From positions 64,001 through 128,000 of the IMG/VR virus record IMGVR_UViG_3300044557_000107: 64,000 bases of DNA. One strand, given 5' to 3'. Every line of letters begins with the position of its first letter. Position 1 is the stretch's first letter. The position numbers and the translations under genes were made by a program. The notes under the pieces were generated by a model. It was not told the origin of the DNA. It made no database searches and was given only the letters and a program-made list of their open reading frames with translations. Below are positions 10,809 to 62,381 of this stretch, piece after piece. The DNA comes from a virus. Its lineage: Duplodnaviria; Caudoviricetes.

Positions 10809-11945
10809 ATGACTTTGAAAGGAATCAAACTAAGAATCTACCCTAATAGAGAACAACAATTAAAGATTAAACTTAACTTTGGATATAACAGATTTGTTTG
10901 GAATCAGATGTTAGACATGATGATTAAACGCTATGAAAATAATCCCGAAGCGCCTTTTCTGGGAGCCTATACCCTAGATAAACTATTACCAACCCTAAAA
11001 TGTGAATACCCATTCTTAAAAGATGCTGAATCTACCAGTCTTCAAAATACTAATCATGACTTGATTGAAGCTTATAAGAAATTCTTTAGAGAACACAAAG
11101 GATTTCCTAAGTTTAAATCACGTAAATTTCCTAAGCAGAGTTACCAATCAAAAATGGGAATTAGCAAGGCTTCAACAAATTATTTAAAGCTACCTAAGAT
11201 TGGTGTTGTTAAAGCCAAAGGACAAATACCAGACTGTAAAATTAATAGGGTTACTATCAGATTATCTGCCACAGGAAAATTCTATGTGGTTTTGTTAGTT
11301 GATACAGATATTAATAGTCTTCCTAAAACTAATAATGCCGTAGGCATTGACATGGGTGTAGCAGATCTGATGATTACTAGTGATGGTATTAAATATCCCA
11401 CGATTAGATTTGATAAACTCCTCAGTAAAAAGAAACATTATTGGGAGAAACGGTTAGCTAGACGTAGACTGCAAGCTAAGAAGGAAATAGCTTGGGATAA
11501 GCATAATAAAGTAGCAGAGCCACATGAATTAAGTGATTTCAAGAACTACCAAAAAGCTAAAACTATGGTTGCCAAGTATAATGAGAAAATAGCTAACCAG
11601 CGCAATGATTATCTTCATAAGTTAACTAAGTCTTTAGTAGAGCAGTATGATGTGATTAAGATTGAAGATTTGAAAGCCAAAAATCTTCTAAAGAATCACA
11701 AGCTCGCTAGAGCAATTGCTAACCAATCATGGAGAGAACTACGTACACAGTTAGAATATAAATGTGAATGGTATGGTAAACAACTAGTCATTGTTAACCC
11801 CAGAAAAACATCACAAATTTGCTCTAATTGTGGTTATGATGATGGTAAACACACATTGGATATTCGACAGTGGACATGTCCTATGTGTGGTACCCATCAT
11901 GATAGAGATATTAATGCTGCTAAGAACATCTTAGCTAGTGAATAA
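10809..11945 (+). CDS. tnpB: TnpB RNA-guided endonuclease (IS200/IS605 family), copy 1, no tnpA
   Basis: KLRIYP N-terminus; RuvC I GIDMG, RuvC II IEDL, Zn finger CSNC/CPMC, RuvC III DRDINAAKNI; all catalytic residues intact. Confidence 0.95.
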   Translation: MTLKGIKLRIYPNREQQLKIKLNFGYNRFVWNQMLDMMIKRYENNPEAPFLGAYTLDKLLPTLKCEYPFLKDAESTSLQNTNHDLIEAYKKFFREHKGFPKFKSRKFPKQSYQSKMGISKASTNYLKLPKIGVVKAKGQIPDCKINRVTIRLSATGKFYVVLLVDTDINSLPKTNNAVGIDMGVADLMITSDGIKYPTIRFDKLLSKKKHYWEKRLARRRLQAKKEIAWDKHNKVAEPHELSDFKNYQKAKTMVAKYNEKIANQRNDYLHKLTKSLVEQYDVIKIEDLKAKNLLKNHKLARAIANQSWRELRTQLEYKCEWYGKQLVIVNPRKTSQICSNCGYDDGKHTLDIRQWTCPMCGTHHDRDINAAKNILASE

Positions 11946-31488: not shown

Positions 31489-33444
31489 TTAAAAAAGTAA
31501 CTTACTAATATCTTTAGTTTCAAAAGCTTCCCGCAAAGGTGTTTTGGTGGGAGTAACTGATGCTTCCGTATTGTTTGCATTAAGCACATCAAACTCAAAG
31601 GTTCCTCCAGCATCTAACTGGTTTTTAAGATAGTCTAATCCTAAAATGCAATATACCATTGATTGAACATAGTGGTCGGCGCCTTTTCTTGAGATAGATT
31701 CACGATACTCGCCGCTTTTATCTTCAACGTCTTGAATAATAACATTATCAAAATGCTTAATTAATTTATCTACTTCTTTTCCTGTAGGGAATCCTACTTT
31801 ACCTTGTTTAATTAAGCTTACCAGTCGTTTGTTTTGCACCAGTTTATCCACAACTACAATTCGTTTATTCTCATTAAATGATGGTTCAATTTGTTGACTA
31901 GCTGTAATAAGTCCACTTGTAGGAGACGTTGAGTACCTGCAACCAAAGACTCGATTACGACCGTAAACATCCATAAGGTCAATAATCTTGTTACCAGCGT
32001 CCCCCACATCGGCCACTACCATATCTGGATTATATTGATTGAAAAGTAATCGAATTGCTTGAATGTCACGATCCACTTGAGAACTATCTGTGGCTCCATT
32101 ATTAGCAACCTGTGTTAGATTTAATACATCCATTGCTCCGTTAGACTTGAGCCCCATTACAACAATTGAGTGTTTTTGATTACCCCAGTCAATTCCCATG
32201 GTACATAGAGAATAGTCTGTACTATCTTCTTTGGGGTCCTTGAAACGAGTATTTCGTTTAATATCTGCCGCAGTTACTTTGGTTTTAGCATCTTCGTAAG
32301 GAAACCCAAGGTCATAGTTATAGAAGGCTTGCTTACTCTTTGATTGAAGTTCGGCCATTTTAAGATCGTCAGCAGATACCCATACAGCATTCATTTGGCT
32401 AATAAAGTATCCTCGTGATTGGTAGCTTCGACTAGGGTACTTGCAAATCCAATGACCATTATACCAACGGTCTAAAGGACGTCCACATTTACTACATACA
32501 TATTGGTAAGAACCTGGAGTAATAATACCCGACATAAGGTCAATTCCATCTTTGTTGACGAGACGGATGTTACCGCCAGCCTGAATACTAGAAGGGTCAT
32601 AGTCCTCATAACTTAGAATGTTATCATAGCCGCAATGCGTACATTTATGAGCATAGTACCATTGATCTGTAAGCCCAAATTCGTAAGCAATTCCCCGCCC
32701 AGGAACCGATGGAGTACTCCATAAATTAAGTCGGTTAAACTTACTAGACTTTAAACTGTTTTGGGCACTACTATAAGCGGCTGGAGTTACTCGATCAAAT
32801 TCATCTAAAGAGAGATAGTCTACGGCAATAGATTCCAAACTCTTTGGAGAACTACTAGAAGCAAAGGTAATAAAGGAATTTCTAATCTTTTTTACTTGCT
32901 GGTTATCTGTATTCTTATCTTGTATCTGACCGTAGTACCCGTAGGCAAGTTCTGTATCTAGACGCATTTTAGTCCACTTTTGAAGTAAATTGTTTGTAGG
33001 AAAACTGTACAGACAGGCAACCCCATTATTATTATGTGTGTCTGCAAAATTGATCATTTTGGCCACCCCAACTTCGGTAAGTCCAAGTTGACGGCTCTTC
33101 TCAATTACTAGCTTATCCGACTGATCATCTAAAATCTGTTTTTGCCAGGGACGATGCATTAGTGCTCGGTTAGGGTCTCTATTGGGGACTGAAAGAACAA
33201 ACGGAGTTCCACCTTTAAGTGTATGGTGTCTTAACGTATAATTAGAAGGAGCAATAAAGTCTAGCGTATAAGCAAGCTGTTCTTCAGAAACACTTTTAAG
33301 AGGCTCATCTTCCGTAGCAAACATGAGATTCATAATTTCATGAATTTCTTTACCAGAGTATCCGTTATCGCCATAAAGAAGGCCGTTAACTGGATTAGGG
33401 GCTTCCCACATACCATCTTTTGTGTTACTTGTATTATTTTCCAT
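31489..33444 (-). CDS. terL: Terminase large subunit
   Basis: RPWQ Q-motif, KSRQLGLTE Walker A, LSLDEFD Walker B, STPS motif C, Zn-finger insert, GIDWG nuclease, ADHY. Confidence 0.93.
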   Translation of the reverse strand: MENNTSNTKDGMWEAPNPVNGLLYGDNGYSGKEIHEIMNLMFATEDEPLKSVSEEQLAYTLDFIAPSNYTLRHHTLKGGTPFVLSVPNRDPNRALMHRPWQKQILDDQSDKLVIEKSRQLGLTEVGVAKMINFADTHNNNGVACLYSFPTNNLLQKWTKMRLDTELAYGYYGQIQDKNTDNQQVKKIRNSFITFASSSSPKSLESIAVDYLSLDEFDRVTPAAYSSAQNSLKSSKFNRLNLWSTPSVPGRGIAYEFGLTDQWYYAHKCTHCGYDNILSYEDYDPSSIQAGGNIRLVNKDGIDLMSGIITPGSYQYVCSKCGRPLDRWYNGHWICKYPSRSYQSRGYFISQMNAVWVSADDLKMAELQSKSKQAFYNYDLGFPYEDAKTKVTAADIKRNTRFKDPKEDSTDYSLCTMGIDWGNQKHSIVVMGLKSNGAMDVLNLTQVANNGATDSSQVDRDIQAIRLLFNQYNPDMVVADVGDAGNKIIDLMDVYGRNRVFGCRYSTSPTSGLITASQQIEPSFNENKRIVVVDKLVQNKRLVSLIKQGKVGFPTGKEVDKLIKHFDNVIIQDVEDKSGEYRESISRKGADHYVQSMVYCILGLDYLKNQLDAGGTFEFDVLNANNTEASVTPTKTPLREAFETKDISKLLF

Positions 33445-33461
33445 AAATTATTTCAAACCCT

Positions 33462-33911
33462 CTATTCATTATAATCATCTAAGTTATCTTGGTTAATTGA
33501 TTCTCCCCGGTCTTTAAGGAGACTATTAACATCGTCTTTAGTTAGACTATCAATGTCTTCTACATTAATAACTTTTTCTTCGTGAATATTACCTTGAATA
33601 TCCGTAGTATTTTTACGATGTACTTTAACGTGCTTTTCTAGGGATAATTCTTGATTAACGGTTAATGCAGGTATTTTACCAGAAGACTCTTCGGAATTAA
33701 CTGATATTTCATTAATGTCTAAGAACATATTGTAAAGATCTTTATAATCTCGAACGGTATCCACTGTAAAGGTACCATCATCGACTTTTTTAAGAAAGCC
33801 TTCCATAAGCCGCATGGCCCCTTTATTAAAGTTCTGGGCTAGTTTCTTCTTAGCTTTCTTATTACTTTCTTGCTCTTCAGTAAGAGCTTTTATGTTACTA
33901 GCGACACCCAA
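33462..33911 (-). CDS. Putative terminase small subunit
   Basis: Immediately upstream of terL; helical, 149 aa. Confidence 0.55.
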   Translation of the reverse strand: MGVASNIKALTEEQESNKKAKKKLAQNFNKGAMRLMEGFLKKVDDGTFTVDTVRDYKDLYNMFLDINEISVNSEESSGKIPALTVNQELSLEKHVKVHRKNTTDIQGNIHEEKVINVEDIDSLTKDDVNSLLKDRGESINQDNLDDYNE

Positions 33912-38509: not shown

Positions 38510-38580
38510 GCCTCTATAGTTCAATGGTAGAACACTAGTCTTGTAAACTAGGAATAGAAGTTCAATTCTTCTTAGAGGCA
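38510..38580 (+). tRNA. tRNA-Thr(UGU)
   Basis: GCCTCTA/TAGAGGC acceptor, CTAGT-CT TGT AA-ACTAG anticodon arm, AGAAG-TTCAATT-CTTCT T arm. Confidence 0.88.
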
Positions 38581-38625
38581 TTATAGTATATAGTTTGTAG
38601 TGATAGATAGGGGGGTGGAATCGCG

Positions 38626-38727
38626 TTGGACAGTATATCTGATGTAGCTTTAATTGCTTTGGTAGGGTTTCTAATTTACACAACTCATGTGTGGGCGTGG
38701 GCGTGGCTCCTAATATTTGTTCTTTAA
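38626..38727 (+). CDS. Small membrane peptide (33 aa)
   Basis: RBS GGGGGTGG + TTG; MDSISDVALIALVGFLIYTTHVWAWAWLLIFVL. Confidence 0.6.
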   Translation: MDSISDVALIALVGFLIYTTHVWAWAWLLIFVL

Positions 38728-38746
38728 ATAGAGAGTAGGTGGTATA

Positions 38747-38872
38747 TTGGATAGAAACACGGCAGTCACCATATGGAACATCGGAGTCTTATGTTTCTCA
38801 GGATTCCTTGTACGGACCACTAATAACCCATGGTGGGCGCTGATAGGATTACTAGCGTGTGCGCCATCATAA
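38747..38872 (+). CDS. Small membrane peptide (41 aa), paralog of preceding
   Basis: RBS AGGTGG + TTG; MDRNTAVTIWNIGVLCFSGFLVRTTNNPWWALIGLLACAPS. Confidence 0.6.
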   Translation: MDRNTAVTIWNIGVLCFSGFLVRTTNNPWWALIGLLACAPS

Positions 38873-38890
38873 AATTATTCAAAATAAACG

Positions 38891-39104
38891 TTGACATTCT
38901 GTTTAACTACTAGTATACTAAGAACCATAAAGAACTTAGGTAACCATAGATGCGAAAACCAAGTATCTTAATAAGTTACTTAAGGATCTTTAAGTAAACT
39001 GGGCTGGGACAGCCCTTAGTAAATAGCTGTAACCTATAGATACTTTAGAGTATCCAAGTACGCAGTGTTCCTAGAAGCTCGTCACTTTAGTAACGAGCAG
39101 TTCA
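38891..39104 (+). ncRNA. Stand-alone omegaRNA cassette A (promoter + scaffold; guide from ~39105 CTGCCCACCAGTACCTCC)
   Basis: TTGACA-17-TATACT promoter; 39000-39104 is homologous to the tnpB-1 omegaRNA with compensatory changes and ends AGTTCA. Confidence 0.8.
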
Positions 39105-39273
39105 CTGCCCACCAGTACCTCCTGTCAAGGGTTATTGAAAACTGGTGTAAAACTAATATGTCGCGTCCAGTAATATGACTGGGGTGGGATGACTAAGGGT
39201 TGACACCTAACAAGACTGTCCGTTATCCTACATATTAGCAGGTAACCTTTGAGAGGCTTTGGGTTACCACAAT

Positions 39274-39361
39274 GGATAGGTACTCAAGTGGTTAAGAGGG
39301 TTGCTTGCTAAGCAATTAGGTCGTATAATGCGACGCGTGGGTTCGAATCCCACTCTATCCT
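39274..39361 (+). tRNA. tRNA-Ser(GCU)
   Basis: GGATAGG/TCTATCC acceptor, GTTGC-TT GCT AA-GCAAT, long variable arm, GTGGG-TTCGAAT-CCCAC. Confidence 0.9.
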
Positions 39362-39392
39362 TTAAAATTATTAATAGGGAGGTGAATTGTAC

Positions 39393-39503
39393 ATGTACAT
39401 GGAAGATGATAATATTAAGATAGATCATAGTATTTTAGATACGGAATCGTGGTTAACCGATGAGGATATTTACAATATGTTCTTTGAGGAATCTATAAAT
39501 TAA
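39393..39503 (+). CDS. Small acidic peptide (36 aa)
   Basis: RBS GGGAGGTG; MYMEDDNIKIDHSILDTESWLTDEDIYNMFFEESIN. Confidence 0.6.
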   Translation: MYMEDDNIKIDHSILDTESWLTDEDIYNMFFEESIN

Positions 39504-39527
39504 ATTTAAGAAAACATGTTACTTTAG

Positions 39528-39740
39528 TTGACATTCTGTTAACTAGGGGTATACTAAAAACTATAAAGAACTTAGGTAACCATAGATGCGAAAACCAAGT
39601 ATCTTAATAAGTTACTTAAGGATCTTTAAGTAAACTGGGCTGGGACAGCCCTTAGTAAATAGCTGTAACCTCTATGTGCTTTAGGGTACTCAAGCATGCA
39701 GTGTTCCTAGAAGCCCGTTACTTTAGTAATGAGTAGTTCA
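39528..39740 (+). ncRNA. Stand-alone omegaRNA cassette B (promoter + scaffold; guide from ~39741 CGGAGGACATATAGTTTG)
   Basis: Near-duplicate of cassette A from GTTGACA to AGTTCAC, then sequences diverge completely. Confidence 0.8.
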
Positions 39741-39755
39741 CGGAGGACATATAGT

Positions 39756-39911
39756 TTGAAATTAGATACGGATAAATTATGCCAGGCTATTGAAGATCTG
39801 GGATATACACCAGAGTTAAACTATAGTAATCCCGGAATAGAAGTTGATGGGAAGCATATAGACTGGGAAGATATTGGAACAGTATTAGATGTAACTTCAA
39901 AAGTAGTATAA
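39756..39911 (+). CDS. Small acidic hypothetical protein (51 aa)
   Basis: RBS GGAGG then TTG; MKLDTDKLCQAIEDLGYTPE...; ORF-track start 39729 lies inside the omegaRNA. Confidence 0.55.
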   Translation: MKLDTDKLCQAIEDLGYTPELNYSNPGIEVDGKHIDWEDIGTVLDVTSKVV

Positions 39912-39919
39912 AACCAGCT

Positions 39920-40690
39920 TAATGCCATCCAAGGTTGCTATTAGATCTCAATGTAATTGAAGTTTAATAGCATCTCTGGATGCACGATCAGCGGCATAGC
40001 CGTGTAGACTGCGTGGGCCTGAAACATGGTCATTAAGATAACTCAATCGTTATCTTGGGGTAGTTAAGCCTAGCAACAGAATTTAGCCGTCTCCGAAGGT
40101 AGCGGGACGTTAATTTAGAATACTATCTAATTGCATGATATAGACCGCAACGTCTCTAAACTATGGTACTAGTGTTAAGCGTGTGTATGAGGAACTATCA
40201 GTTTCGCCACGTCTAAGATCCATATTTTAAGTAAAAACGCAGTCGTCGGGTGAGGATACCCATCAGGTTACTGTCTCGTTAACTGTAGTAGTCAGCGGGT
40301 AGGCAAAAGAAAGTCTAGTTTGTGGGGTCTTAGGGGATAAAATGGAAGAATAAGGTACTTACGGAGTGGGGCACATAATATTCCAGCAACAGCAAATATG
40401 GCTTAACAACCATAGAACCAAAGTTGTACGTTAATAAGTGTCTTTGCTGTGATAGGACTAATAATCCCTATAACACTCCAGTAAGGTTTTAGTAGGTCAA
40501 GGCAGAGGCAGATAAAACTTGAAAAATAACTTAACTGCTAATGATGACTGAAAGATGGTCGGTAGATAATCCGGGCCCAGTTCTTGTGAAGGTAGCTAGA
40601 GCATGCAAATGACGGTTTGTGTGTTAGCCTAGCTAAAACTGTAACCTAATAATTCGCACATTAAGATTACCCACCCAAGCCAATGGGAAC
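39920..40690 (+). ncRNA. Large ornate ncRNA, GOLLD/ROOL-like
   Basis: ~770 nt with no ORF >=60 aa, GC-richer, many long-range helices, in a phage tRNA cluster; family not verifiable by eye. Confidence 0.6.
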
Positions 40691-40698
40691 ACTATTAT

Positions 40699-40789
40699 AC
40701 AGGTGTAGCATAACGGCAGTGCAACTGGTTTATAACCAGTATTAGCTGTAGATTTCAGCAAGAAGTGGGTTCGACTCCCTCCACCTGTA
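40699..40789 (+). tRNA. tRNA with UAU anticodon (Ile) and long variable arm
   Basis: ACAGGTG/CACCTGT acceptor; ACTGG-TT TAT AA-CCAGT; variable hairpin GCTG-TAGATTT-CAGC; TTCGACT T loop. Confidence 0.78.
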
Positions 40790-40910
40790 TTTTAGCAAAT
40801 GTAGAAATATTTGGGGAACCTATACCCCTTTATAGGAATATTTTGAAAAGCTAAAATTGGAAGTACCCAAAATTAAGGTATCCCAAGTCTTATCAATATA
40901 AGATCAATAT

Positions 40911-40981
40911 TGAGAGGAGCTAAAGAGTTAGAATAGCGATGCAGGTTCTAGCTTATGCAGGTTTAAATCCTGCCTTCCACA
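40911..40981 (+). pseudogene. Degenerate tRNA-like element
   Basis: T-arm-like GCAGG-TTTAAAT-CCTGC and stem GTTAGAA/TTCTAGC, but no clean D arm or anticodon loop. Confidence 0.4.
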
Positions 40982-40982
40982 T

Positions 40983-41531
40983 TGTCCCGTAGTTGAGTGG
41001 TAACTATGTCTAAATAAGCTGGTGAAAAATGATAAATGGTAACTATATAATGGAAGTAGCCCCTAAAGAATATCCCTATAGGCTTATGCGTGGTAAATAC
41101 GCTTACTCTCATAAAGTAGCATATTGGAAATATTACGGATGTATACCAGAGGGTTTTGAAATTCATCATAAGGACGGAAATAAGCATAATAATGATATAT
41201 CAAATTTATGTGCGGTTTCTAGAAAGCAACATCAGATAATTGAACACGTAATAAGAGGAAAAGTTCAAGTTCTTGTTAAATGTCCAGTATGTAATTCATT
41301 ATTCATTATAGATAAACGCAAGACTCATTTGATAAACTCCAATAATAAAGTAACCTGTTGTAGTAGAAGCTGTTCTGGTAAATTTCCCTCACTAACTAAA
41401 ATTGAGCAAGATAAAGGGATTAACGAGAATATTATAATGGAGTTTACAAATCATGTATTACCATAAATATAAAACATTAATGTTTTATAAAACTAATGCG
41501 GATATCACAGGTTCGAATCCTGTCGGGACAG
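40983..41531 (+). tRNA. tRNA gene split by HNH insertion (5' half 40983-~41011, 3' half ~41497-41531); isotype undetermined
   Basis: Acceptor TGTCCCG pairs with CGGGACA; D arm TAGTTGAGTGGTAAC upstream and T arm ACAGG-TTCGAAT-CCTGT downstream of the HNH ORF. Confidence 0.7.
41029..41466 (+). CDS. HNH homing endonuclease with C-terminal Zn-binding domain
   Basis: YSHKVAY...IHHKDGNKHNNDISNL; CPVC...CCSRSC. Confidence 0.88.
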   Translation: MINGNYIMEVAPKEYPYRLMRGKYAYSHKVAYWKYYGCIPEGFEIHHKDGNKHNNDISNLCAVSRKQHQIIEHVIRGKVQVLVKCPVCNSLFIIDKRKTHLINSNNKVTCCSRSCSGKFPSLTKIEQDKGINENIIMEFTNHVLP

Positions 41532-41546
41532 TTTAAAATACAATTT

Positions 41547-41634
41547 AGAGGGGTGTCAGAGTGGTCTAATGTGTCGGCTTTGAATACCGATGATCGTGAT
41601 GAGCGATCCGTGGGTTCGAATCCCACCCCCTCTG
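41547..41634 (+). tRNA. tRNA-Ser(UGA)
   Basis: AGAGGGG/CCCCTCT acceptor, TT TGA AT loop, long variable arm, GTGGG-TTCGAAT-CCCAC. Confidence 0.85.
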
Positions 41635-41725: not shown

Positions 41726-41778
41726 TTGACTTAAGGATACCTTAGTGGTATCCTTATTTTAGTTAAATGAAAGAAGGA
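41726..41778 (+). promoter_or_regulatory. Repeated early promoter/RBS cassette with internal inverted repeat, copy 1
   Basis: TTGACT-17-TATCCT with TAAGGATAC...GTATCCTTA palindrome; near-identical copies at 53953 and 62319. Confidence 0.8.
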
Positions 41779-41785
41779 AATCTTA

Positions 41786-42241
41786 ATGGCAATTATGAGT
41801 GCAAAACAATATAGGAATCAATTGAATAGTAAAGTACAGGATTCTGACAGTAAACTATATGAAGATGGATTAGCAAGGATTGAAAAAGCAATAGATGAAA
41901 GATTAAAGAGTGCTTACCCCGGTTGGTATGTAGAGGTATTTTTAGATACTGACACGATGCGGGGGAATGCTCTTAAAAATATTCGATTGAAACTAGAAAA
42001 TCTGGGATATTTAGTTATCACCTGCGAGAAAGATCCGCTGAATCCCCTTGTACGTGATCTATTTATGAAAATCATAGTTCCGGACCCAGATGAACCCACA
42101 ATTTATTTCAAGAGAAGAATTCAAAGTTTGCTCCCACGAAATGACCATTCCCAGCGAATTATGTTAAATAGTCACATGGATGAAGGGAACTCCGGACTAG
42201 TATTAGATATTCTCCGGGAAACTATTAGAAAAGGGGAATAA
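41786..42241 (+). CDS. Hypothetical protein
   Basis: 151-aa ORF behind promoter cassette. Confidence 0.65.
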   Translation: MAIMSAKQYRNQLNSKVQDSDSKLYEDGLARIEKAIDERLKSAYPGWYVEVFLDTDTMRGNALKNIRLKLENLGYLVITCEKDPLNPLVRDLFMKIIVPDPDEPTIYFKRRIQSLLPRNDHSQRIMLNSHMDEGNSGLVLDILRETIRKGE

Positions 42242-42243
42242 AA

Positions 42244-43974
42244 ATGATCGATAAAGTTCAACTAGATAAGTATATCAGTGATCATCTCAGTGCCTACTCA
42301 GACACCAACGAGTACCGTTTAGCACTAGTAAGTCAAACACATGGAGTTTACTCTGGAATTGTCTCTATGACTAAATCAGGTAAGGATAAGAAACGTTATT
42401 TAGACTTCATCCTAGACTTTACTGATCGTAGCCTAACCATCTCGGGGATTAGTGGTAAACAGTTAAAATCCACAACAGGATTACTTAATGAGATCTTTAA
42501 TAATGGAGACTATGCGTTAGCAGAAGGACTCAGTGAAACTTCTGTTCAGACTTTAGATACTATTAAGTACTTGGGTATGTTATATGGGTCCTTGGGACGT
42601 GAGCCTATTAGTCATATGAACATTGGACGAGGACTTCTTCGGGCCCTTCATACTTTCCCAGTAGCAGAATCCTATGTTAAGGAATTCTCGGATAAAATGA
42701 AGGATCTTTTTGTAGAGATTCATAAAGGAACTTTGATGTTTGAGTCTGCTAAGAGCTTCTTTTCTAGGGTAATGTTTTCCCATTGGAATCTTATTAGTTA
42801 TTATCAAGAAGAGTGGGATAAAGGTAAACATAAGCCTTTACAGAAGGTACTAGGAATCTCTAAGGATACCTATAATAGATTAAAGAAAGAAGACTTATTG
42901 AAAGACAGTATGGGATTTCGTTATTATGACTTTATAGAATACAATAATTACTTGTATGATAAATGTGATGGAGATAACGTATATCGTTTAAAAAATACTG
43001 TTGATAGCTATTATTCTTTCCCTATATCGTTTATTAAAAAGGCTAATGAGGTTAACTGGAATCGGTTAGAACAAACTCTAAAAGATGTTGATGATGAACG
43101 AGGGTACCATAATTATAAGTCCTTTTATGATAGCATGCGTTCTAATATGAGTCGTTATGTGGCTTACAATTCAGAATATCCGATGAATAGTGGTTATCCA
43201 ACTATTAGTGATGTTGCAAACATGGGAAACACCGATATTTTTAATTTATCTCGTTACCTATACGCAAGTTGTTACCACCAACAAGCAATAGATTTTGAGA
43301 ATGCTCTTGAAATTCTTAAGGATTACTATAAAATGGTTGCAGATGTCCCACACTTTGTTAAGTTCCCCCGCTACTTAAAGACCGCTCATGATATTGCTTC
43401 ACGAAATGCAGAGGTCCTCGGTAGTAGCTCAGATATTCTTGCAGTTCACAAGGTGTATACACACAACCAGAAGTTAGAAATGAACTTCAAAGATTACTCT
43501 ATGATCTTAGCAGCATCTCCTAAAGAAATTGTAGATGAAGGGCAACTCCAGCATAACTGCGTAGGTTCTTATGTAAATGATGTTGTGAAGGGTACAAGTA
43601 TTATTCTATTTTTACGAAAGAAATCGGATATTTATCGATCATGGGTTACAGTTGAAGTCCGTAATATTGATGGAACATTAAAAGTTGTTCAAACATTTGC
43701 TACATTTAATGATGTGCTTAATGATGAACAGAAGAAAGCTCTAGCAACTTGGATGAAGATTAACAAAATACAGCTTGGAGATAGCGTTGGTGGGGTTGGA
43801 CGAGTTTCTAATGATGAATTATCTAAGTTAGCTGTCAAAACTGCAAATATTCACAAAATTGATATGGAATTTCATCGGGATTCCTTTGATAAAATTGCGG
43901 AACAGAAGAGTAAGATGGAATCAGCTAAGAAAGAATTAGAAGTAAATAGTTTAAAAGTTAAGAAAGCATCTTAG
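42244..43974 (+). CDS. PcfJ-domain protein
   Basis: DYYKM...FPRYLKTAHD...EGQLQHNCVGSY...ILFLRK...TVEV. Confidence 0.75.
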   Translation: MIDKVQLDKYISDHLSAYSDTNEYRLALVSQTHGVYSGIVSMTKSGKDKKRYLDFILDFTDRSLTISGISGKQLKSTTGLLNEIFNNGDYALAEGLSETSVQTLDTIKYLGMLYGSLGREPISHMNIGRGLLRALHTFPVAESYVKEFSDKMKDLFVEIHKGTLMFESAKSFFSRVMFSHWNLISYYQEEWDKGKHKPLQKVLGISKDTYNRLKKEDLLKDSMGFRYYDFIEYNNYLYDKCDGDNVYRLKNTVDSYYSFPISFIKKANEVNWNRLEQTLKDVDDERGYHNYKSFYDSMRSNMSRYVAYNSEYPMNSGYPTISDVANMGNTDIFNLSRYLYASCYHQQAIDFENALEILKDYYKMVADVPHFVKFPRYLKTAHDIASRNAEVLGSSSDILAVHKVYTHNQKLEMNFKDYSMILAASPKEIVDEGQLQHNCVGSYVNDVVKGTSIILFLRKKSDIYRSWVTVEVRNIDGTLKVVQTFATFNDVLNDEQKKALATWMKINKIQLGDSVGGVGRVSNDELSKLAVKTANIHKIDMEFHRDSFDKIAEQKSKMESAKKELEVNSLKVKKAS

Positions 43975-43985
43975 GAGGATTAATA

Positions 43986-44447
43986 ATGGATGATAATGCT
44001 AGTTTTGGTAGCTGTGGAAGAACAAAAGAAGTAGTTCTAGGAGAAGATTATAGTTTTCTTCCCTTGTTAAGACTCATAAGGAACTCAAAAGGAATTAATA
44101 CTTATGAGTATACAGTTGAGGATTTTGAGGAAAATGATAATGATGAACTATGGATAAGAAACTCTAATACAAGAGTTCCTTACAAGCGTATTTTTACCAG
44201 CAAAGACTTTGGAAGTACTTATAAAGGAGATTTGATAAAAAATTGTGGTAAATCCCATATTATTTCGACACAACTAGAAGACTACCGAGAAGATAAGGAC
44301 TTTATTGAAGTTCTTAAGAGTAACCCAAAGTATCTTAGATATGCCTTTAGAATTGTTGAGATCCCTATTGACTATAATTATGTGGTAGTAGCAGATGAGA
44401 TGGGTAGTGAAACTATGTATGCGGGAAGAGGACTAATTGTTCTTTAG
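43986..44447 (+). CDS. Hypothetical protein
   Basis: 153-aa ORF, RBS AGGAGG. Confidence 0.65.
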   Translation: MDDNASFGSCGRTKEVVLGEDYSFLPLLRLIRNSKGINTYEYTVEDFEENDNDELWIRNSNTRVPYKRIFTSKDFGSTYKGDLIKNCGKSHIISTQLEDYREDKDFIEVLKSNPKYLRYAFRIVEIPIDYNYVVVADEMGSETMYAGRGLIVL

Positions 44448-44469
44448 TAAGAAAGAGGGAAGTCATATT

Positions 44470-44691
44470 ATGAATAAATTAAAGAAAGATAAAGAACTTA
44501 AACGCAGGCCGTGGCAAAAGGATATGCCAGAGGATGGTGTGGGTGCTAATCTTAAAGGACGTGCTTTAGGACTTACAGAGGAACCCGTTGTCCCTAAGTA
44601 CCATATGAACCCTAATTTTGACTATACTTCTTATCTAAATGAATTAAAGGAATTACCAGAAGTAAAAGAGAAACTATCTAATTTATTTTAA
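44470..44691 (+). CDS. 73-aa protein carrying terminase-like RPWQK and KGRALGLTE motifs
   Basis: RBS GAGGGA then ATG 44470; motif identity to TerL of this window. Confidence 0.65.
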   Translation: MNKLKKDKELKRRPWQKDMPEDGVGANLKGRALGLTEEPVVPKYHMNPNFDYTSYLNELKELPEVKEKLSNLF

Positions 44692-44700
44692 AGCACCCTA

Positions 44701-45036
44701 TTGACAGAATATCTCAAAAGAGGTATTCTTTTAGTACATAGAAAAGAGGGATATAGCATGAATAAAAGACAACGTAATAAATATATTCTAGTAAGCACAT
44801 CGGATGTTCTGGGATACTATGAGTGTAGTTCGAAGAAGTATAAGGACATTAAGTATAATTTAAATGTAAACTTAGACGGTTATCTAGTCCTTCATAAAAG
44901 GTTCTATTTGAAAGAGATAATTAATAAGGGATTATCTTGGCTAATTTTGCAAGATTCTAAGATTAAGCATCCTAGATACATGAATTATTTGAAGGTAAAT
45001 GTAAAGTATGATAGGTTGGTGAACTTGGGTGAATAA
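44701..45036 (+). CDS. Hypothetical protein (start probably ATG 44758)
   Basis: RBS GAGGGA before MNKRQRNK. Confidence 0.55.
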   Translation: MTEYLKRGILLVHRKEGYSMNKRQRNKYILVSTSDVLGYYECSSKKYKDIKYNLNVNLDGYLVLHKRFYLKEIINKGLSWLILQDSKIKHPRYMNYLKVNVKYDRLVNLGE

Positions 45037-45877
45037 TGGATACTTAATTGTTAGTGATATTCATGGAAATTATCAAGCTCTTAAGCACATGGTTGATATT
45101 CCAGAGTTCTCAAATTCTAAGATTATTTTTGATGGAGATTACATCGATGGCTATGGAGTTAATGATTCTGATAAAGTAGTAGACTTTATTGCAGATCAGT
45201 ACCAGCGTAATAATGCTACAGTTCTGCCGGGGAACCATGAATTACTATTATATAAGTATATCTATGGTGAACGAAGAGACTGGGAATTATATAAAGCTAA
45301 TGGAGGGAAGCGTACAGTAAAGTCCTTCCTAGGAGAAGCTACTCGTAGCTCGGTTTCTAATAAGGTAGCACTAAGGGATAATAAATATTGGAATCAACTA
45401 GATTCTATGATGGATCACTGTTTTGACATTCGAGATACTGTAGTAATGTATGAAGACTCTAAACTGATTACAGTCCATGCAGGTTTAAGTTATATTGCTG
45501 AGGATTACCATAATACCAACTTGTGGGATAGCTTATGGATGCGAGAGGATTATTTCTATGGACTTAATACGAAGTACCATAATGATAACTACTTTGCACG
45601 TAATAAGTTTCACAAGCCCATTGTGGTAGGACATACTCCCACGTGTACTTTAGAAGGTATCTTACCTACAGGAACTCAGTTACACTATACTAGGGGTGAT
45701 TTAGAGTGTCCCGTGGTAGTATCTAAGTATGAAGATGAGGAACCACGATTCTTTATTGACGGAGGGAGCCATGGAGCTACCAATTCATTAAACGTTCTCT
45801 ACTATGAAAGCGAAGATAACTACGGAGCTTACAAGCTAACTCCGGATGGTCTTACAGAAGGGGAGATTGTGAGCTAG
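45029..45877 (+). CDS. Calcineurin-like metallophosphoesterase (Ser/Thr phosphatase family)
   Basis: SDIHG, GDYID, GNHE, VHAG, GHTP motifs. Confidence 0.9.
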   Translation: MNNGYLIVSDIHGNYQALKHMVDIPEFSNSKIIFDGDYIDGYGVNDSDKVVDFIADQYQRNNATVLPGNHELLLYKYIYGERRDWELYKANGGKRTVKSFLGEATRSSVSNKVALRDNKYWNQLDSMMDHCFDIRDTVVMYEDSKLITVHAGLSYIAEDYHNTNLWDSLWMREDYFYGLNTKYHNDNYFARNKFHKPIVVGHTPTCTLEGILPTGTQLHYTRGDLECPVVVSKYEDEEPRFFIDGGSHGATNSLNVLYYESEDNYGAYKLTPDGLTEGEIVS

Positions 45878-46020: not shown

Positions 46021-47208
46021 TTATTTAGTAATTTTAGTTGTATCTCCAGTTACCCAGTTAGTTCCTAAGTATTGAATATTCATAGCACCAATGCGGTCAT
46101 CATTAGACTTATAACCACAGTTGGCACACTGGTACTCATGAATATCATGTTTTCTGTTATTTTTATTGACAGATCCACATTTAGGACAACGCTGGCTGGT
46201 ATACTGAGCACTAACCTTAATAACTTTAGAACCATTAAGTTCTGCTTTATAGGTTAGAAATTGCTCAAACTGGTAGAAAGCCCAGCTAACCTGCTCGTAA
46301 CGATTTGTTTTAGCAACTTTCTCCGTAGCAAATCGAACATTGGTTAAGTCTTCTAATACAAAGAGAGTGTCTTTACCATATTTATCAGTGAGTGTCTTAG
46401 TTATTCGATGATTAATATCACTCATCCAGCGGTTTTCTCGCTGACCAATGGCTTTAAGTCTTCTTTTAGCAGACTTAGTACCCTTACTTTGTAATTGTTG
46501 TCTTAACTTCTTGTACTTTCTACGTTTTGCTGTAATAGCTTTACCATCTATAAAGGAAGTTTTACCTTTTTCATCATAAGTGGTTGCTAAAAAGCGTAGA
46601 CCTCTATCTATGCCAACTACATGTTTCAAGTCATCTTTTTCAAAGATACGAGGTTCTACAGTAGCAGAGATATGCAAGAAGTAATGTCCATATGATTTAA
46701 CAAGTTTAGCAGTGCCTAATTTACCATCTAAGTATTGTTCAAAGCCCTTCATAGAAAAACCCATAATTTCACGGTTACCTAAGGTATTAAGAGATAGCTT
46801 ACCATTCTTAAATGACCAGTCACGTATAGATACTAAATCACACTGAGGTCTTTTAAAGCTAATAGGCTTTTGTAACCATGATAGGTCACGCTGAGCGGTA
46901 TACCAAGTATCAGTGTTGTTATCTTTATAGTGGTATGGCTCTTGTTTAAGCTGTGTTTCTACAGTTCTATACCTAGCAATAACTGTTTTAAAGACAGATT
47001 GTGTCATTTGTGCCTTAAGACCAAACTTGTCCCTAACCTTATGATACAAATCTTTATTAATATCTTTTTGCTTAGGTATAAAGTTATGGTCAAAGTAGTA
47101 CTTAGATACTAAATTACAGGCATTCCTATACTGTTGCATAGTAGCTAGTAATAAGTTACCTTGTTCAGATGTAGGATATATTCTTGCTTTAATAGTTACA
47201 GTTGTCAT
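46021..47208 (-). CDS. tnpB: TnpB RNA-guided endonuclease, copy 2, no tnpA
   Basis: IKARIYP; GIDRG, LEDL, CPKC/CANC, NDDRIGAMNI; start ATG 47208 after RBS AGAGGTG (track gives 47232). Confidence 0.93.
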   Translation of the reverse strand: MTTVTIKARIYPTSEQGNLLLATMQQYRNACNLVSKYYFDHNFIPKQKDINKDLYHKVRDKFGLKAQMTQSVFKTVIARYRTVETQLKQEPYHYKDNNTDTWYTAQRDLSWLQKPISFKRPQCDLVSIRDWSFKNGKLSLNTLGNREIMGFSMKGFEQYLDGKLGTAKLVKSYGHYFLHISATVEPRIFEKDDLKHVVGIDRGLRFLATTYDEKGKTSFIDGKAITAKRRKYKKLRQQLQSKGTKSAKRRLKAIGQRENRWMSDINHRITKTLTDKYGKDTLFVLEDLTNVRFATEKVAKTNRYEQVSWAFYQFEQFLTYKAELNGSKVIKVSAQYTSQRCPKCGSVNKNNRKHDIHEYQCANCGYKSNDDRIGAMNIQYLGTNWVTGDTTKITK

Positions 47209-47235
47209 TTGTGTTTCACCTCTTCCCTTCACTAT

Positions 47236-53952: not shown

Positions 53953-54005
53953 TTGACATAAGGATATCTTAGTGGTATCCTTATTTTAGTTAAATGAAAG
54001 AAGGA
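53953..54005 (+). promoter_or_regulatory. Repeated early promoter cassette, copy 2
   Basis: TTGACATAAGGATATCTTAGTGGTATCCTTATTTTAGTTAAATGAAAGAAGG. Confidence 0.8.
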
Positions 54006-54012
54006 ATATAAA

Positions 54013-56958: not shown

Positions 56959-58347
56959 ATGAAAGAAAAGTTAAACAAGGGGATTAAGGTCAGAATATTT
57001 CCTAATGAAGAGCAAGTGGGACAAATTAGATTATCATTTATGTGGGCACGGAACTTTTATAACTATCTGGTTGAATACCAGAAAGACTACACCAAAGCTA
57101 TCTGGATTATGCGAGATCGAGAAGGTGGATATAGAAAAGATAAGAATGGTAAAGTTATACTATTTGACAAGAAGGGTAATGAAAGTAAAACTGGTAAACC
57201 TCAGTTTAAGTATAAGGGAAATGTATATCTAAGTAAGTTTGACTTGATGAAGTTAGCTTCACCTTATCGAAAGTTTCATAAAGATGCAGGTGCAAGTAAG
57301 GTGGACAGCCACGTTTATGAAATGACGGCCACTTCATTTTATCAAGCGATTCAAAATCAATATAATCCTAGAATGATTAATGCAAAAGCACCTAAGAAGC
57401 ATAAATGGGTTACTTCATATACTAGTAGATACACACAAGCGTCTAAGTTTTCATCAACAAAGAAAAGTGGTTCTGTTCCAAGCATGTATAGTGTAACAAA
57501 ACATTGGGTAAAGGTACCAAAGTTAGGCATGGTTAAATACTCTGGTTCACAATCATTGAAAAATATTAAGCCAAAGAACTTTACTATTACAGAGGATAAA
57601 ACAGGTAAATTCTACATGAGTATTATTATTGAATATCATAAGGATATTAAATCTGTTAAGCCTGTAAAAGTAGTTGGGATTGACTTAGGGTTAGATACTC
57701 TAGCTATTACTAGTGAGGGTAAAAAATATAAGATTATTCCTTTCACTAAGAATCATGAAAGAACCCTAGCAATTAAGAGCAGAAAAGCAAGTAAGAGAAG
57801 ATTATTCATGGAAACGGTTATTGGATCTTCTAAGAATAAGGCAAAGCTGTTTCCACTTACTCAACATGATTTTCCTAGTGTTAATGAAGCATACAGGGGA
57901 AGAGCTTTAGTATATAAGCACACTGCAAATCAACGAAATAACTATCTTCATGAAGTAAGTAGAAGCATTGTAGATTCTGCTGATGCAGTGGTTGTAGAAG
58001 ACATTACCGCTAGTTTCATGATGAAGGGTGGTAAAAGTAAGAAAACAGGTCGTAAGACTAAGAATAAGAGCGCCAAGAGTGCTAGTAATGCTAGTTGGAA
58101 CAAGCTATTAGTATATCTAGAATACAAGTGTAAGGAAGATGGAAAACAGTTTATTAAAGTAAGCAAAAACTATACTAGTCAGATTTGCCATGATTGTGGT
58201 TATTTATATGAAAACTTGGGTGTACCAAATGGTGGTGACAATCGTTCTGTTCGTGAATGGGACTGCCCTAAATGTGGGAAACATCATGATCGTGACATTA
58301 ATGCGGCTATCAATATTAAAAATAGAGGGTTAGAAGTTATTGATTAA
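56959..58347 (+). CDS. CRISPR-adjacent TnpB-derived RuvC nuclease (Cas12f/TranC-like), 462 aa
   Basis: KVRIFP; GIDLG, VEDI, CHDC/CPKC, DRDINAAINI intact; longer than the other two TnpBs; followed by leader and array. Confidence 0.85.
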   Translation: MKEKLNKGIKVRIFPNEEQVGQIRLSFMWARNFYNYLVEYQKDYTKAIWIMRDREGGYRKDKNGKVILFDKKGNESKTGKPQFKYKGNVYLSKFDLMKLASPYRKFHKDAGASKVDSHVYEMTATSFYQAIQNQYNPRMINAKAPKKHKWVTSYTSRYTQASKFSSTKKSGSVPSMYSVTKHWVKVPKLGMVKYSGSQSLKNIKPKNFTITEDKTGKFYMSIIIEYHKDIKSVKPVKVVGIDLGLDTLAITSEGKKYKIIPFTKNHERTLAIKSRKASKRRLFMETVIGSSKNKAKLFPLTQHDFPSVNEAYRGRALVYKHTANQRNNYLHEVSRSIVDSADAVVVEDITASFMMKGGKSKKTGRKTKNKSAKSASNASWNKLLVYLEYKCKEDGKQFIKVSKNYTSQICHDCGYLYENLGVPNGGDNRSVREWDCPKCGKHHDRDINAAINIKNRGLEVID

Positions 58348-58362
58348 TTTTAAAAATAAGTA

Positions 58363-58391
58363 TTGACATAAGGATTATTAAGAGGTATTAT
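58363..58391 (+). promoter_or_regulatory. sigmaA promoter for tracr/leader and array
   Basis: TTGACA-17-TATTAT 15 nt after the nuclease stop codon. Confidence 0.75.
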
Positions 58392-62318: not shown

Positions 62319-62368
62319 TTGACTTAAGGATACCTATGTGGTATCCTTATTTTAGTTAAATGAAAGAA
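62319..62368 (+). promoter_or_regulatory. Repeated early promoter cassette, copy 3
   Basis: TTGACTTAAGGATACCTATGTGGTATCCTTATTTTAGTTAAATGAAAGAA. Confidence 0.8.
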
Positions 62369-62381
62369 AGAGGGAGATACA

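Follow-up and report, generated by a model that had tools for sequence, protein, structure and literature searches.

A small gene on the non-structural arm of a large, uncultured, Herelleviridae-like phage encodes a 73-aa protein that carries a diverged copy of the ATP-site segment of the large terminase (TerL) of the same phage, and comparison with its homologues shows that the gene is real and maintained by selection. On balance we consider it probable that this mini-protein is a mimic of the TerL segment that acts by binding.

The window, the whole 64-kb stretch of DNA analysed here, is the right-central part of a record that is complete at 139,820 bp and has direct terminal repeats. The structural genes are on its minus-strand arm (1-34.5 kb) and the gene of the mini-protein is on the plus-strand arm, ~11 kb from the intact terL and on the opposite strand (Table 1). 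The genome of the phage contains at least six TnpB-like genes, some of them outside the window, together with a 61-aa ORF that corresponds to a C-terminal fragment of TnpB. The TnpB copy at 46021-47232 is 72% identical to a copy from Secundilactobacillus hailunensis, and most of its other close relatives are found in Lactobacillaceae; judging from these relatives, the host probably belongs to the family Lactobacillaceae.

Table 1 Features of the window and of related loci. Positions are those of the window unless a contig (L002 to L009) is named.
Feature	Position	Strand	Evidence or remark
TnpB-like gene	10809-11945	+	
Large terminase gene terL, 651 aa, intact, GpA-type ATPase	31489-33444	-	PF05876 5.3e-11, phrog_675 3.9e-174
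TerL residues 92-126, segment copied by the mini-protein	33067-33171	-	HRPWQK-13 aa-KSRQLGLTE
Putative TerS gene	33462-33911	-	
tRNA island upstream of the operon, four tRNA genes	38510-41634	+	Rfam
Cassette copies in the window	41726-41779, 44701-44733, 53953-54006, 58353-58388, 62319-62372		Plus-strand arm
Upstream cassette (repeat family D2/D3), start of the four-gene unit	41726-41779	+	Terminator-like and promoter-like matches
Four-gene unit	41786-44691		151-aa ORF, PcfJ-like gene, 153-aa ORF, mini-gene last
PcfJ-like protein, 576 aa, in the four-gene unit	42244-43974	+	PF14284, phrog_3169
Ribosome-binding site AAGAGGG	44453-44459	+	10 nt upstream of the mini-protein ATG; read from the sequence
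Mini-protein gene (P0002), 73 aa, stop codon included	44470-44691	+	ORF, translation, homologues, dN/dS ~0.3
TerL-like segment, residues 8-38	44491-44583	+	HMM and hhalign alignments to TerL
Mini-protein Q motif RPWQK	44506-44520	+	
Mini-protein Walker-A-like motif KGRALGLTE	44554-44580	+	Variable linker between RPWQK and this motif
Codon 30 of the mini-gene	44557-44559; L002 1923-1925; L006 424-426		GGA or TCG, a three-base difference
Mini-protein C-terminal half, residues 39-73	44584-44688	+	Conserved; proline-rich, then predicted helical; no TerL similarity
Cassette directly after the mini-gene	44701-44733	+	TTGACA, 10-bp hairpin, T-run; promoter-like TTGACA-17-TATTCT
NinI-like Ser/Thr phosphatase, in the unit after the mini-gene	45029-45877	+	Metallophos
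TnpB-like gene	46021-47232	-	
TnpB-like gene	56959-58347	+	
Split terL loci, vB_OCPT_Car and Bromius	L008 3259-3440, 3555-4846; L009 2466-3763, 3869-4211		

The mini-protein reads RRPWQK-11 aa-KGRALGLTE where the TerL of the phage reads HRPWQK-13 aa-KSRQLGLTE, with 5/5 identities in RPWQK and 7/9 in the Walker A segment. The corresponding DNA is identical at 11/15 positions in the Q motif and at 17/27 in the Walker A, and different synonymous codons are used at 7 of the 12 residues shared by the two proteins. By comparison with lambda (KSA-R79-VGYS) and T4 (LS-R162-QLGKT), in which the Walker A is accompanied by a “toggle” arginine (PMC6379665), KSRQLGLTE is taken as the Walker A of this TerL type. 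The TerL of this phage is at most ~45% identical to the TerLs of Enterococcus, Staphylococcus, Listeria, Bacillus and Lactobacillus Herelleviridae, and its closest IMG/VR relative (73% identical) is split at residues 590/591 (L007, 2720-3051). Searching the PDB found no sequence relative of it, and the AlphaFold2 model of its ATPase domain, made from an alignment of only four sequences, was of no use at a pLDDT of 36.

Single-sequence comparison by itself was not convincing for homology to TerL. Pairwise BLASTP of the mini-protein against TerL gave 26.2 bits (E 9e-5), and when 411 small ORFs were compared with 72 large ORFs genome-wide, the mini-protein and TerL were the best non-TnpB pair with 26.9 bits, the noise extending up to 25.4 bits. 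We therefore relied on profiles in both directions. For the N-terminus of TerL, we built an HMM from the sequences of 11 other Herelleviridae, the phage's own clade being left out; against all 830 six-frame segments of the window, it found TerL at 4.8e-56 and the mini-protein at 0.0012, the next segment following at 0.36; hhalign aligned the mini-protein family with these external TerLs at a probability of 93% (E 3.3e-7). Conversely, the family profile detected in the whole 139.8-kb phage genome itself (2.3e-49), TerL (5.6e-7) and no other match. For all four distinct family members (4/4), the top matches among 38,880 PHROGs were the TerL N-terminal fragment families phrog_9315 and phrog_4486, with E values from 0.0016 to 0.24. 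A tblastn search with one of the homologues (P0014) in 2.3 Gb of phage records matched Herelleviridae only, each match being weak (E 3-4), and the annotated rows among the 30 matches listed fall on terL. Together, the profile comparisons show that the homology of residues ~8-38 to TerL is real. An extension of the similarity into the C-terminal half, which appeared in BLAST, was unsupported by a separate test in which an HMM of the post-Walker-A part of TerL gave ~0 bits against the C-terminal halves and shuffled sequences reached 8.9 bits; the detectable homology covers residues ~8-40.

The family to which the mini-protein belongs is tiny, with three 50%-identity clusters, and the conservation statistics given here rest on few sequences. 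Its own 90% cluster comprises the window copy, a copy on a 137-kb contig (P0004) and one found on three short contigs (P0003), the window copy being 99% identical to the copies on other contigs, and a word-indexed protein search found nothing beyond this cluster. Searching 1.84 billion representative proteins exhaustively with HMMER added two further clusters only, P0013 (66 aa, 71% identical) and P0014 (74 aa, 65% identical); giant repeat proteins that also scored in this search (P0015 and P0016) were discarded as artefacts of summed repeats. Neither the locus nor the mini-protein found a match when the phage collection was searched at the DNA and protein levels, and scans of IMG/VR and metagenomes with the family alignment gave no additional loci.

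RPWQK and LK[GS]RALGLTEE are invariant across the family alignment, and the linker between them is almost fully variable. The distance from the Q of the first motif to the K of the second is 14 residues in P0013, P0014 and TerL alike, the window copy having a 2-residue deletion in the linker. Codons of the motifs differ only synonymously, with the exception of G30/S (GGA vs TCG), and the overall dN/dS against the window copy is 0.32-0.36; for the pair L005 and L006, the value in the tail is 0.96. The C-terminal half (PK..NP.F.Y..YL.ELKEL..V...L.NL) has ~20 invariant positions, and its degree of conservation is close to that of the motifs. A ribosome-binding site precedes every copy, and homologues carry GAGGTGAT and GGGGGG at its position. 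The family has also departed from TerL in places: the invariant glutamine of TerL (KSRQ) is alanine in every member, and hydrophobic beta-1 residues are lost in the window copy (GANL vs ICIL or KIL). Because the homologues keep the motifs, leave the linker free and change the motif codons only synonymously, we consider the mini-gene a selected gene and not a scrap of terL. The sequence-only reading had described a protein mimicking the TerL ATPase motifs that are conserved at the protein level; the sequence bore out everything that it quoted (ORF, two motifs, spacers of 13 and 11 residues, identities and codons), the Q motif and the Walker A segment proved to be copied with profile homology in both directions, and P0013 and P0014 both retain RPWQK and LK[GS]RALGLTEE around a variable linker. 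Its own counter-proposal, that the ORF might be a decaying terL fragment, failed against the dN/dS of ~0.3, the conserved tail and the ribosome-binding site in every copy.

At codon 30, TCG is common to the 99%-identical copies on L002-L004 and the distant homologue on L006. The shared codon suggests an exchange of alleles within the family rather than stepwise mutation.

The mini-gene is bounded by copies of a repeated cassette that consists of TTGAC[AT], a 9-10-bp hairpin with a 4-nt loop and a T-run, with TAT[CT]CT placed 17 nt after TTGAC. From this layout, the cassette has the look of a terminator combined with a promoter and would delimit transcription units; the copy directly after the mini-gene is the putative end of its transcription unit and probably the start of the next. 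This copy is identical in L001-L004 and is kept in L005 (580-612) with compensatory changes in the stem. The neighbours of the mini-gene vary from contig to contig and the gene moves as a cassette. Recombination joints are seen at codon K8, exactly where the homology in L002-L004 begins, at position 44409, and in the following gene just past its ninth codon. In L005, the neighbour on the 3' side has a precomputed Pfam match to Gad2 (anti-Gabija), which is considered further below. As judged from these joints and signals, the setting of the mini-gene is a swappable accessory region under sigma-A-like control. In the 137-kb relative (L001), the PcfJ-like and the NinI-like genes are separated by inserted genes, one of which encodes a TelA-like protein. 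The gene had earlier been placed in an “early operon”, and the operon stands: on the non-structural arm, the mini-gene closes a four-gene unit that is flanked by sigma-A-like cassettes, and “early” is a plausible deduction. Among the sequencing runs, no RNA run was listed with this stretch, and two runs marked “RNA?” are probably DNA and cover it in part.

The mini-protein retains two hallmarks of the GpA_ATPase type, namely an invariant RPWQK as a Q motif ~15 residues upstream of the Walker A and a Walker A with the toggle arginine, K, R, G and T being kept in K[GS]RALGLTE. The mini-protein ends 35 residues after the Walker A and has neither a Walker B nor a catalytic glutamate nor the complete ASCE fold; it also lacks the C-terminal RNase H-like nuclease domain, and a Pfam search with it gave no match even at E 10. 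AlphaFold2 (pLDDT 61, too low for a fold search) and the ESM Atlas (0.36) gave no confident fold, and the protein is predicted to be mostly disordered on its own; helices were predicted at residues 52-72 with low confidence, and the structural neighbours from the ESM Atlas were set aside as meaningless at that pLDDT. With fold, Walker B and nuclease absent as far as its sequence tells, the mini-protein falls outside the TerL ATPase family and cannot be an ATPase, so it is predicted that it must work by binding.

The mechanism that we propose is the following. A piece of TerL comprising the Q motif, strand beta-1 and the Walker A P-loop with its toggle arginine would have been joined, as residues ~8-38, to an unrelated, conserved and probably helical tail of 35 residues. 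The protein would be made from sigma-A-type signals, presumably before the late TerL, would present the ATP-site segment of TerL in an unfolded state, and would occupy a partner that recognises this segment. Because selection has acted on the residues of the TerL ATP site and left the linker free, the binding would be one that depends on likeness to TerL.

As for the partner, the large terminase is, to our knowledge, the phage protein most widely sensed by immunity (by Avs1-3 and Upx), and we tentatively put forward terminase-sensing host immunity. Both Avs2 and Upx sense terminase, and they do so in different ways: EcAvs2 surrounds the folded ATPase with its bound ATP by a large shape-complementary pocket, whereas Upx has been modelled to bind the unfolded TerL strands beta-1, -4, -5 and -6 by beta-augmentation (PMC13601566). 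Furthermore, the stand-alone TerL-like protein vs.8 of T4 activates EcAvs2 on co-expression and does not block it (PMC13601566). Since Avs2 needs a folded ATPase with ATP and is triggered by vs.8, an Avs decoy made of ~35 apparently unfolded residues is less likely than the sequence-only reading had assumed, and by analogy with vs.8 a mimic could even be harmful unless it bound the sensor without activating it. A sensor of the Upx type would fit an unfolded mimic better than Avs. One specific version, in which an unfolded beta-1/P-loop copy made early in infection plugs a terminase sensor of Lactobacillaceae (of the Upx kind or Avs) without activating it, is doubtful at present. ORF55 and ORF83, which are directed against type III Avs and are the only anti-Avs proteins that one preprint names, are proposed or predicted to act otherwise than by terminase mimicry. 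We think it unlikely that the partner of the mimic is TerL or the packaging machinery itself, and equally unlikely that it is something else again.

The mini-protein may also be viewed as a packaging regulator or dominant-negative microprotein, in which the fragment binds TerL (for example a folding intermediate, through strand complementation), TerS or the portal and so delays or tunes packaging, or poisons the terminase of a co-infecting rival phage or satellite. In eukaryotes, microproteins that derive from a fragment and poison the parent complex are an established principle. The copy in the mini-protein is closest to the TerLs of its own clade and the kept residues surround the ATP site, which speaks for such a regulator; against it, the copied segment is not known as a surface for oligomerisation or TerS binding, beta-1 is buried in the folded ATPase, and the mini-gene is located in a swappable accessory region and not among the packaging genes. 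We regard this explanation as unlikely.

The origin of the copied segment bears on another explanation. Its core of 28-30 residues is 52-57% identical to own-clade TerLs and 37-44% to other Herelleviridae TerLs, and the K after RPWQ occurs, among TerLs, only in the clade of the window phage; by these identities, the donor was most likely a TerL of the phage's own clade. The TerL-like part of the mini-protein stops at LGLT/E. In Enterococcus phage vB_OCPT_Car and Lactobacillus phage Bromius, terL is split at residues 122/123, directly after LGL and inside the Walker A; the exon-1 ORF ends in ...KSRQLGL in the former and in ...KSRQLGLT in the latter, and both have further exons downstream, with a second break at 149/150. 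Group I (self-splicing) introns have been documented in the terL of Herelleviridae (PMC11878797); at Rfam gathering thresholds, no intron family was found in the two split loci (L008 and L009). Because the copied piece ends at the terL intron site of relatives, we infer that the fragment was probably captured as the 3' flank of terL exon 1 through intron or homing-endonuclease traffic. The match between the end of the homology and the intron site could be a coincidence, and homology beyond it may have decayed. Such a capture would be old, since the motifs are only 63-73% identical to terL in DNA, a value that also rules out recent gene conversion with terL. A search with Rfam for introns found no group I intron or intron-like RNA in the window or at the mini-gene locus. 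An explanation at the RNA level was rejected, as Rfam detected neither a family nor an intron, and the sense orientation of the two mRNAs leaves no antisense pairing.

The same traffic could have left the mini-gene as a mere by-product, that is, an ectopic exon-1 flank within a small ORF whose function, if it has one, is unrelated to terminase and which persists by hitch-hiking with the terminator-promoter cassette. This would account for a TerL-like part that ends at a documented terL intron site, in a genome rich in selfish elements such as the TnpB copies, and for the joint conservation of the mini-gene and its downstream cassette. However, 14 of the 15 motif residues (the exception being G30/S) have remained unchanged through 29-35% protein divergence while the linker was randomised, the mini-gene locus holds no intron-like RNA, and the capture is old, all of which make a passive by-product decidedly unlikely.

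A third possibility is a minimal phosphate- or nucleotide-binding peptide, in which K, R, G and T of the P-loop bind the ligand and the helical tail oligomerises to give a sponge. The phosphate-contacting residues of the Walker A, including the toggle arginine, are indeed invariant, and one homologue has a possible anti-defence neighbour: the gene next to P0013 on its 3' side (L005, 641-1264) has the precomputed Pfam match to Gad2. A fresh Pfam scan of this gene did not reproduce the Gad2 match, and only nucleotidyltransferase-like PHROG matches (phrog_4400 and phrog_1614) were obtained in the fresh scan. In the mini-protein, the prolines that directly follow TEE would abolish the helix by whose N-terminus a P-loop is completed, structure prediction gave no stable fold, and no related sponge family was detected in the Pfam and PHROG searches; we consider a sponge highly improbable. 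Chance resemblance or convergence between TerL and an unrelated small protein, which the short shared segment (~30 residues) and a BLAST score that exceeds the strongest noise pair of the genome by only 1.5 bits might suggest, is barely credible given that the two-way profile tests remain significant when corrected for the full window and the full genome, that the homologues restore the exact TerL spacing, and that every family member leads to TerL fragment families among the PHROGs.

The mini-protein differs from the relatives of TerL that are already known, each of which it resembles in part by its sequence, the TerL ATPases themselves included. Like the T4 vs.8-type paralogues, it is encoded by a phage apart from terL, is a homologue of the TerL ATPase with a Walker A, and is restricted to particular phage taxa (PMC13601566). 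Whereas vs.8 has both Walker A and B and a high structural similarity to the ATPase domain (PMC13601566), the mini-protein has only the stretch from the Q motif to the Walker A: of its 73 aa, ~30 residues are copied, Walker B and a predicted fold are lacking, the tail is novel, and the homology of the mini-protein is confined to residues ~8-40 where vs.8-type proteins are homologous over the whole ATPase domain. Unlike vs.8, it originates from a GpA-type Herelleviridae TerL. The terL exon-1 ORFs of vB_OCPT_Car (UQT00250.1) and Bromius (AYH92240.1) read HRPWQ-14 aa-KSRQLGL and end where the homology of the mini-protein ends, and terL exon-1 fragments of this kind make up phrog_9315 and phrog_4486, the best PHROG matches of the mini-protein family. 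These ORFs lie in the terL locus, followed by intron and further exons, contain the 60-90 residues that precede the Q motif, and splicing joins them up again; in contrast, the mini-gene is found outside that locus in a genome whose terL is intact, and its product lacks the upstream TerL residues and has a conserved tail of its own. Short or small phage proteins that engage the site at which immunity reads a conserved late protein have reportedly been found elsewhere, for example DSAD1 in the case of DSR2 and the tail tube; for Lit, T4 gp23 contains the Gol peptide, which is said to act as a trigger and not as a blocker. DSAD1 is presumably not derived from the protein with which it competes. 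Neither DSAD1 nor Gol is related to the mini-protein in sequence, and the likeness is one of concept only.

The mini-protein stands as a compact candidate for how phages might blunt terminase sensing, and as a candidate for the regulation of a motor by a fragment of that motor. In addition, its gene exemplifies a route by which new small genes could arise from intron traffic within conserved ones. If the sensor-plugging reading is true, the mini-protein would be the first decoy in anti-defence to be derived from a piece of the very protein that is sensed.
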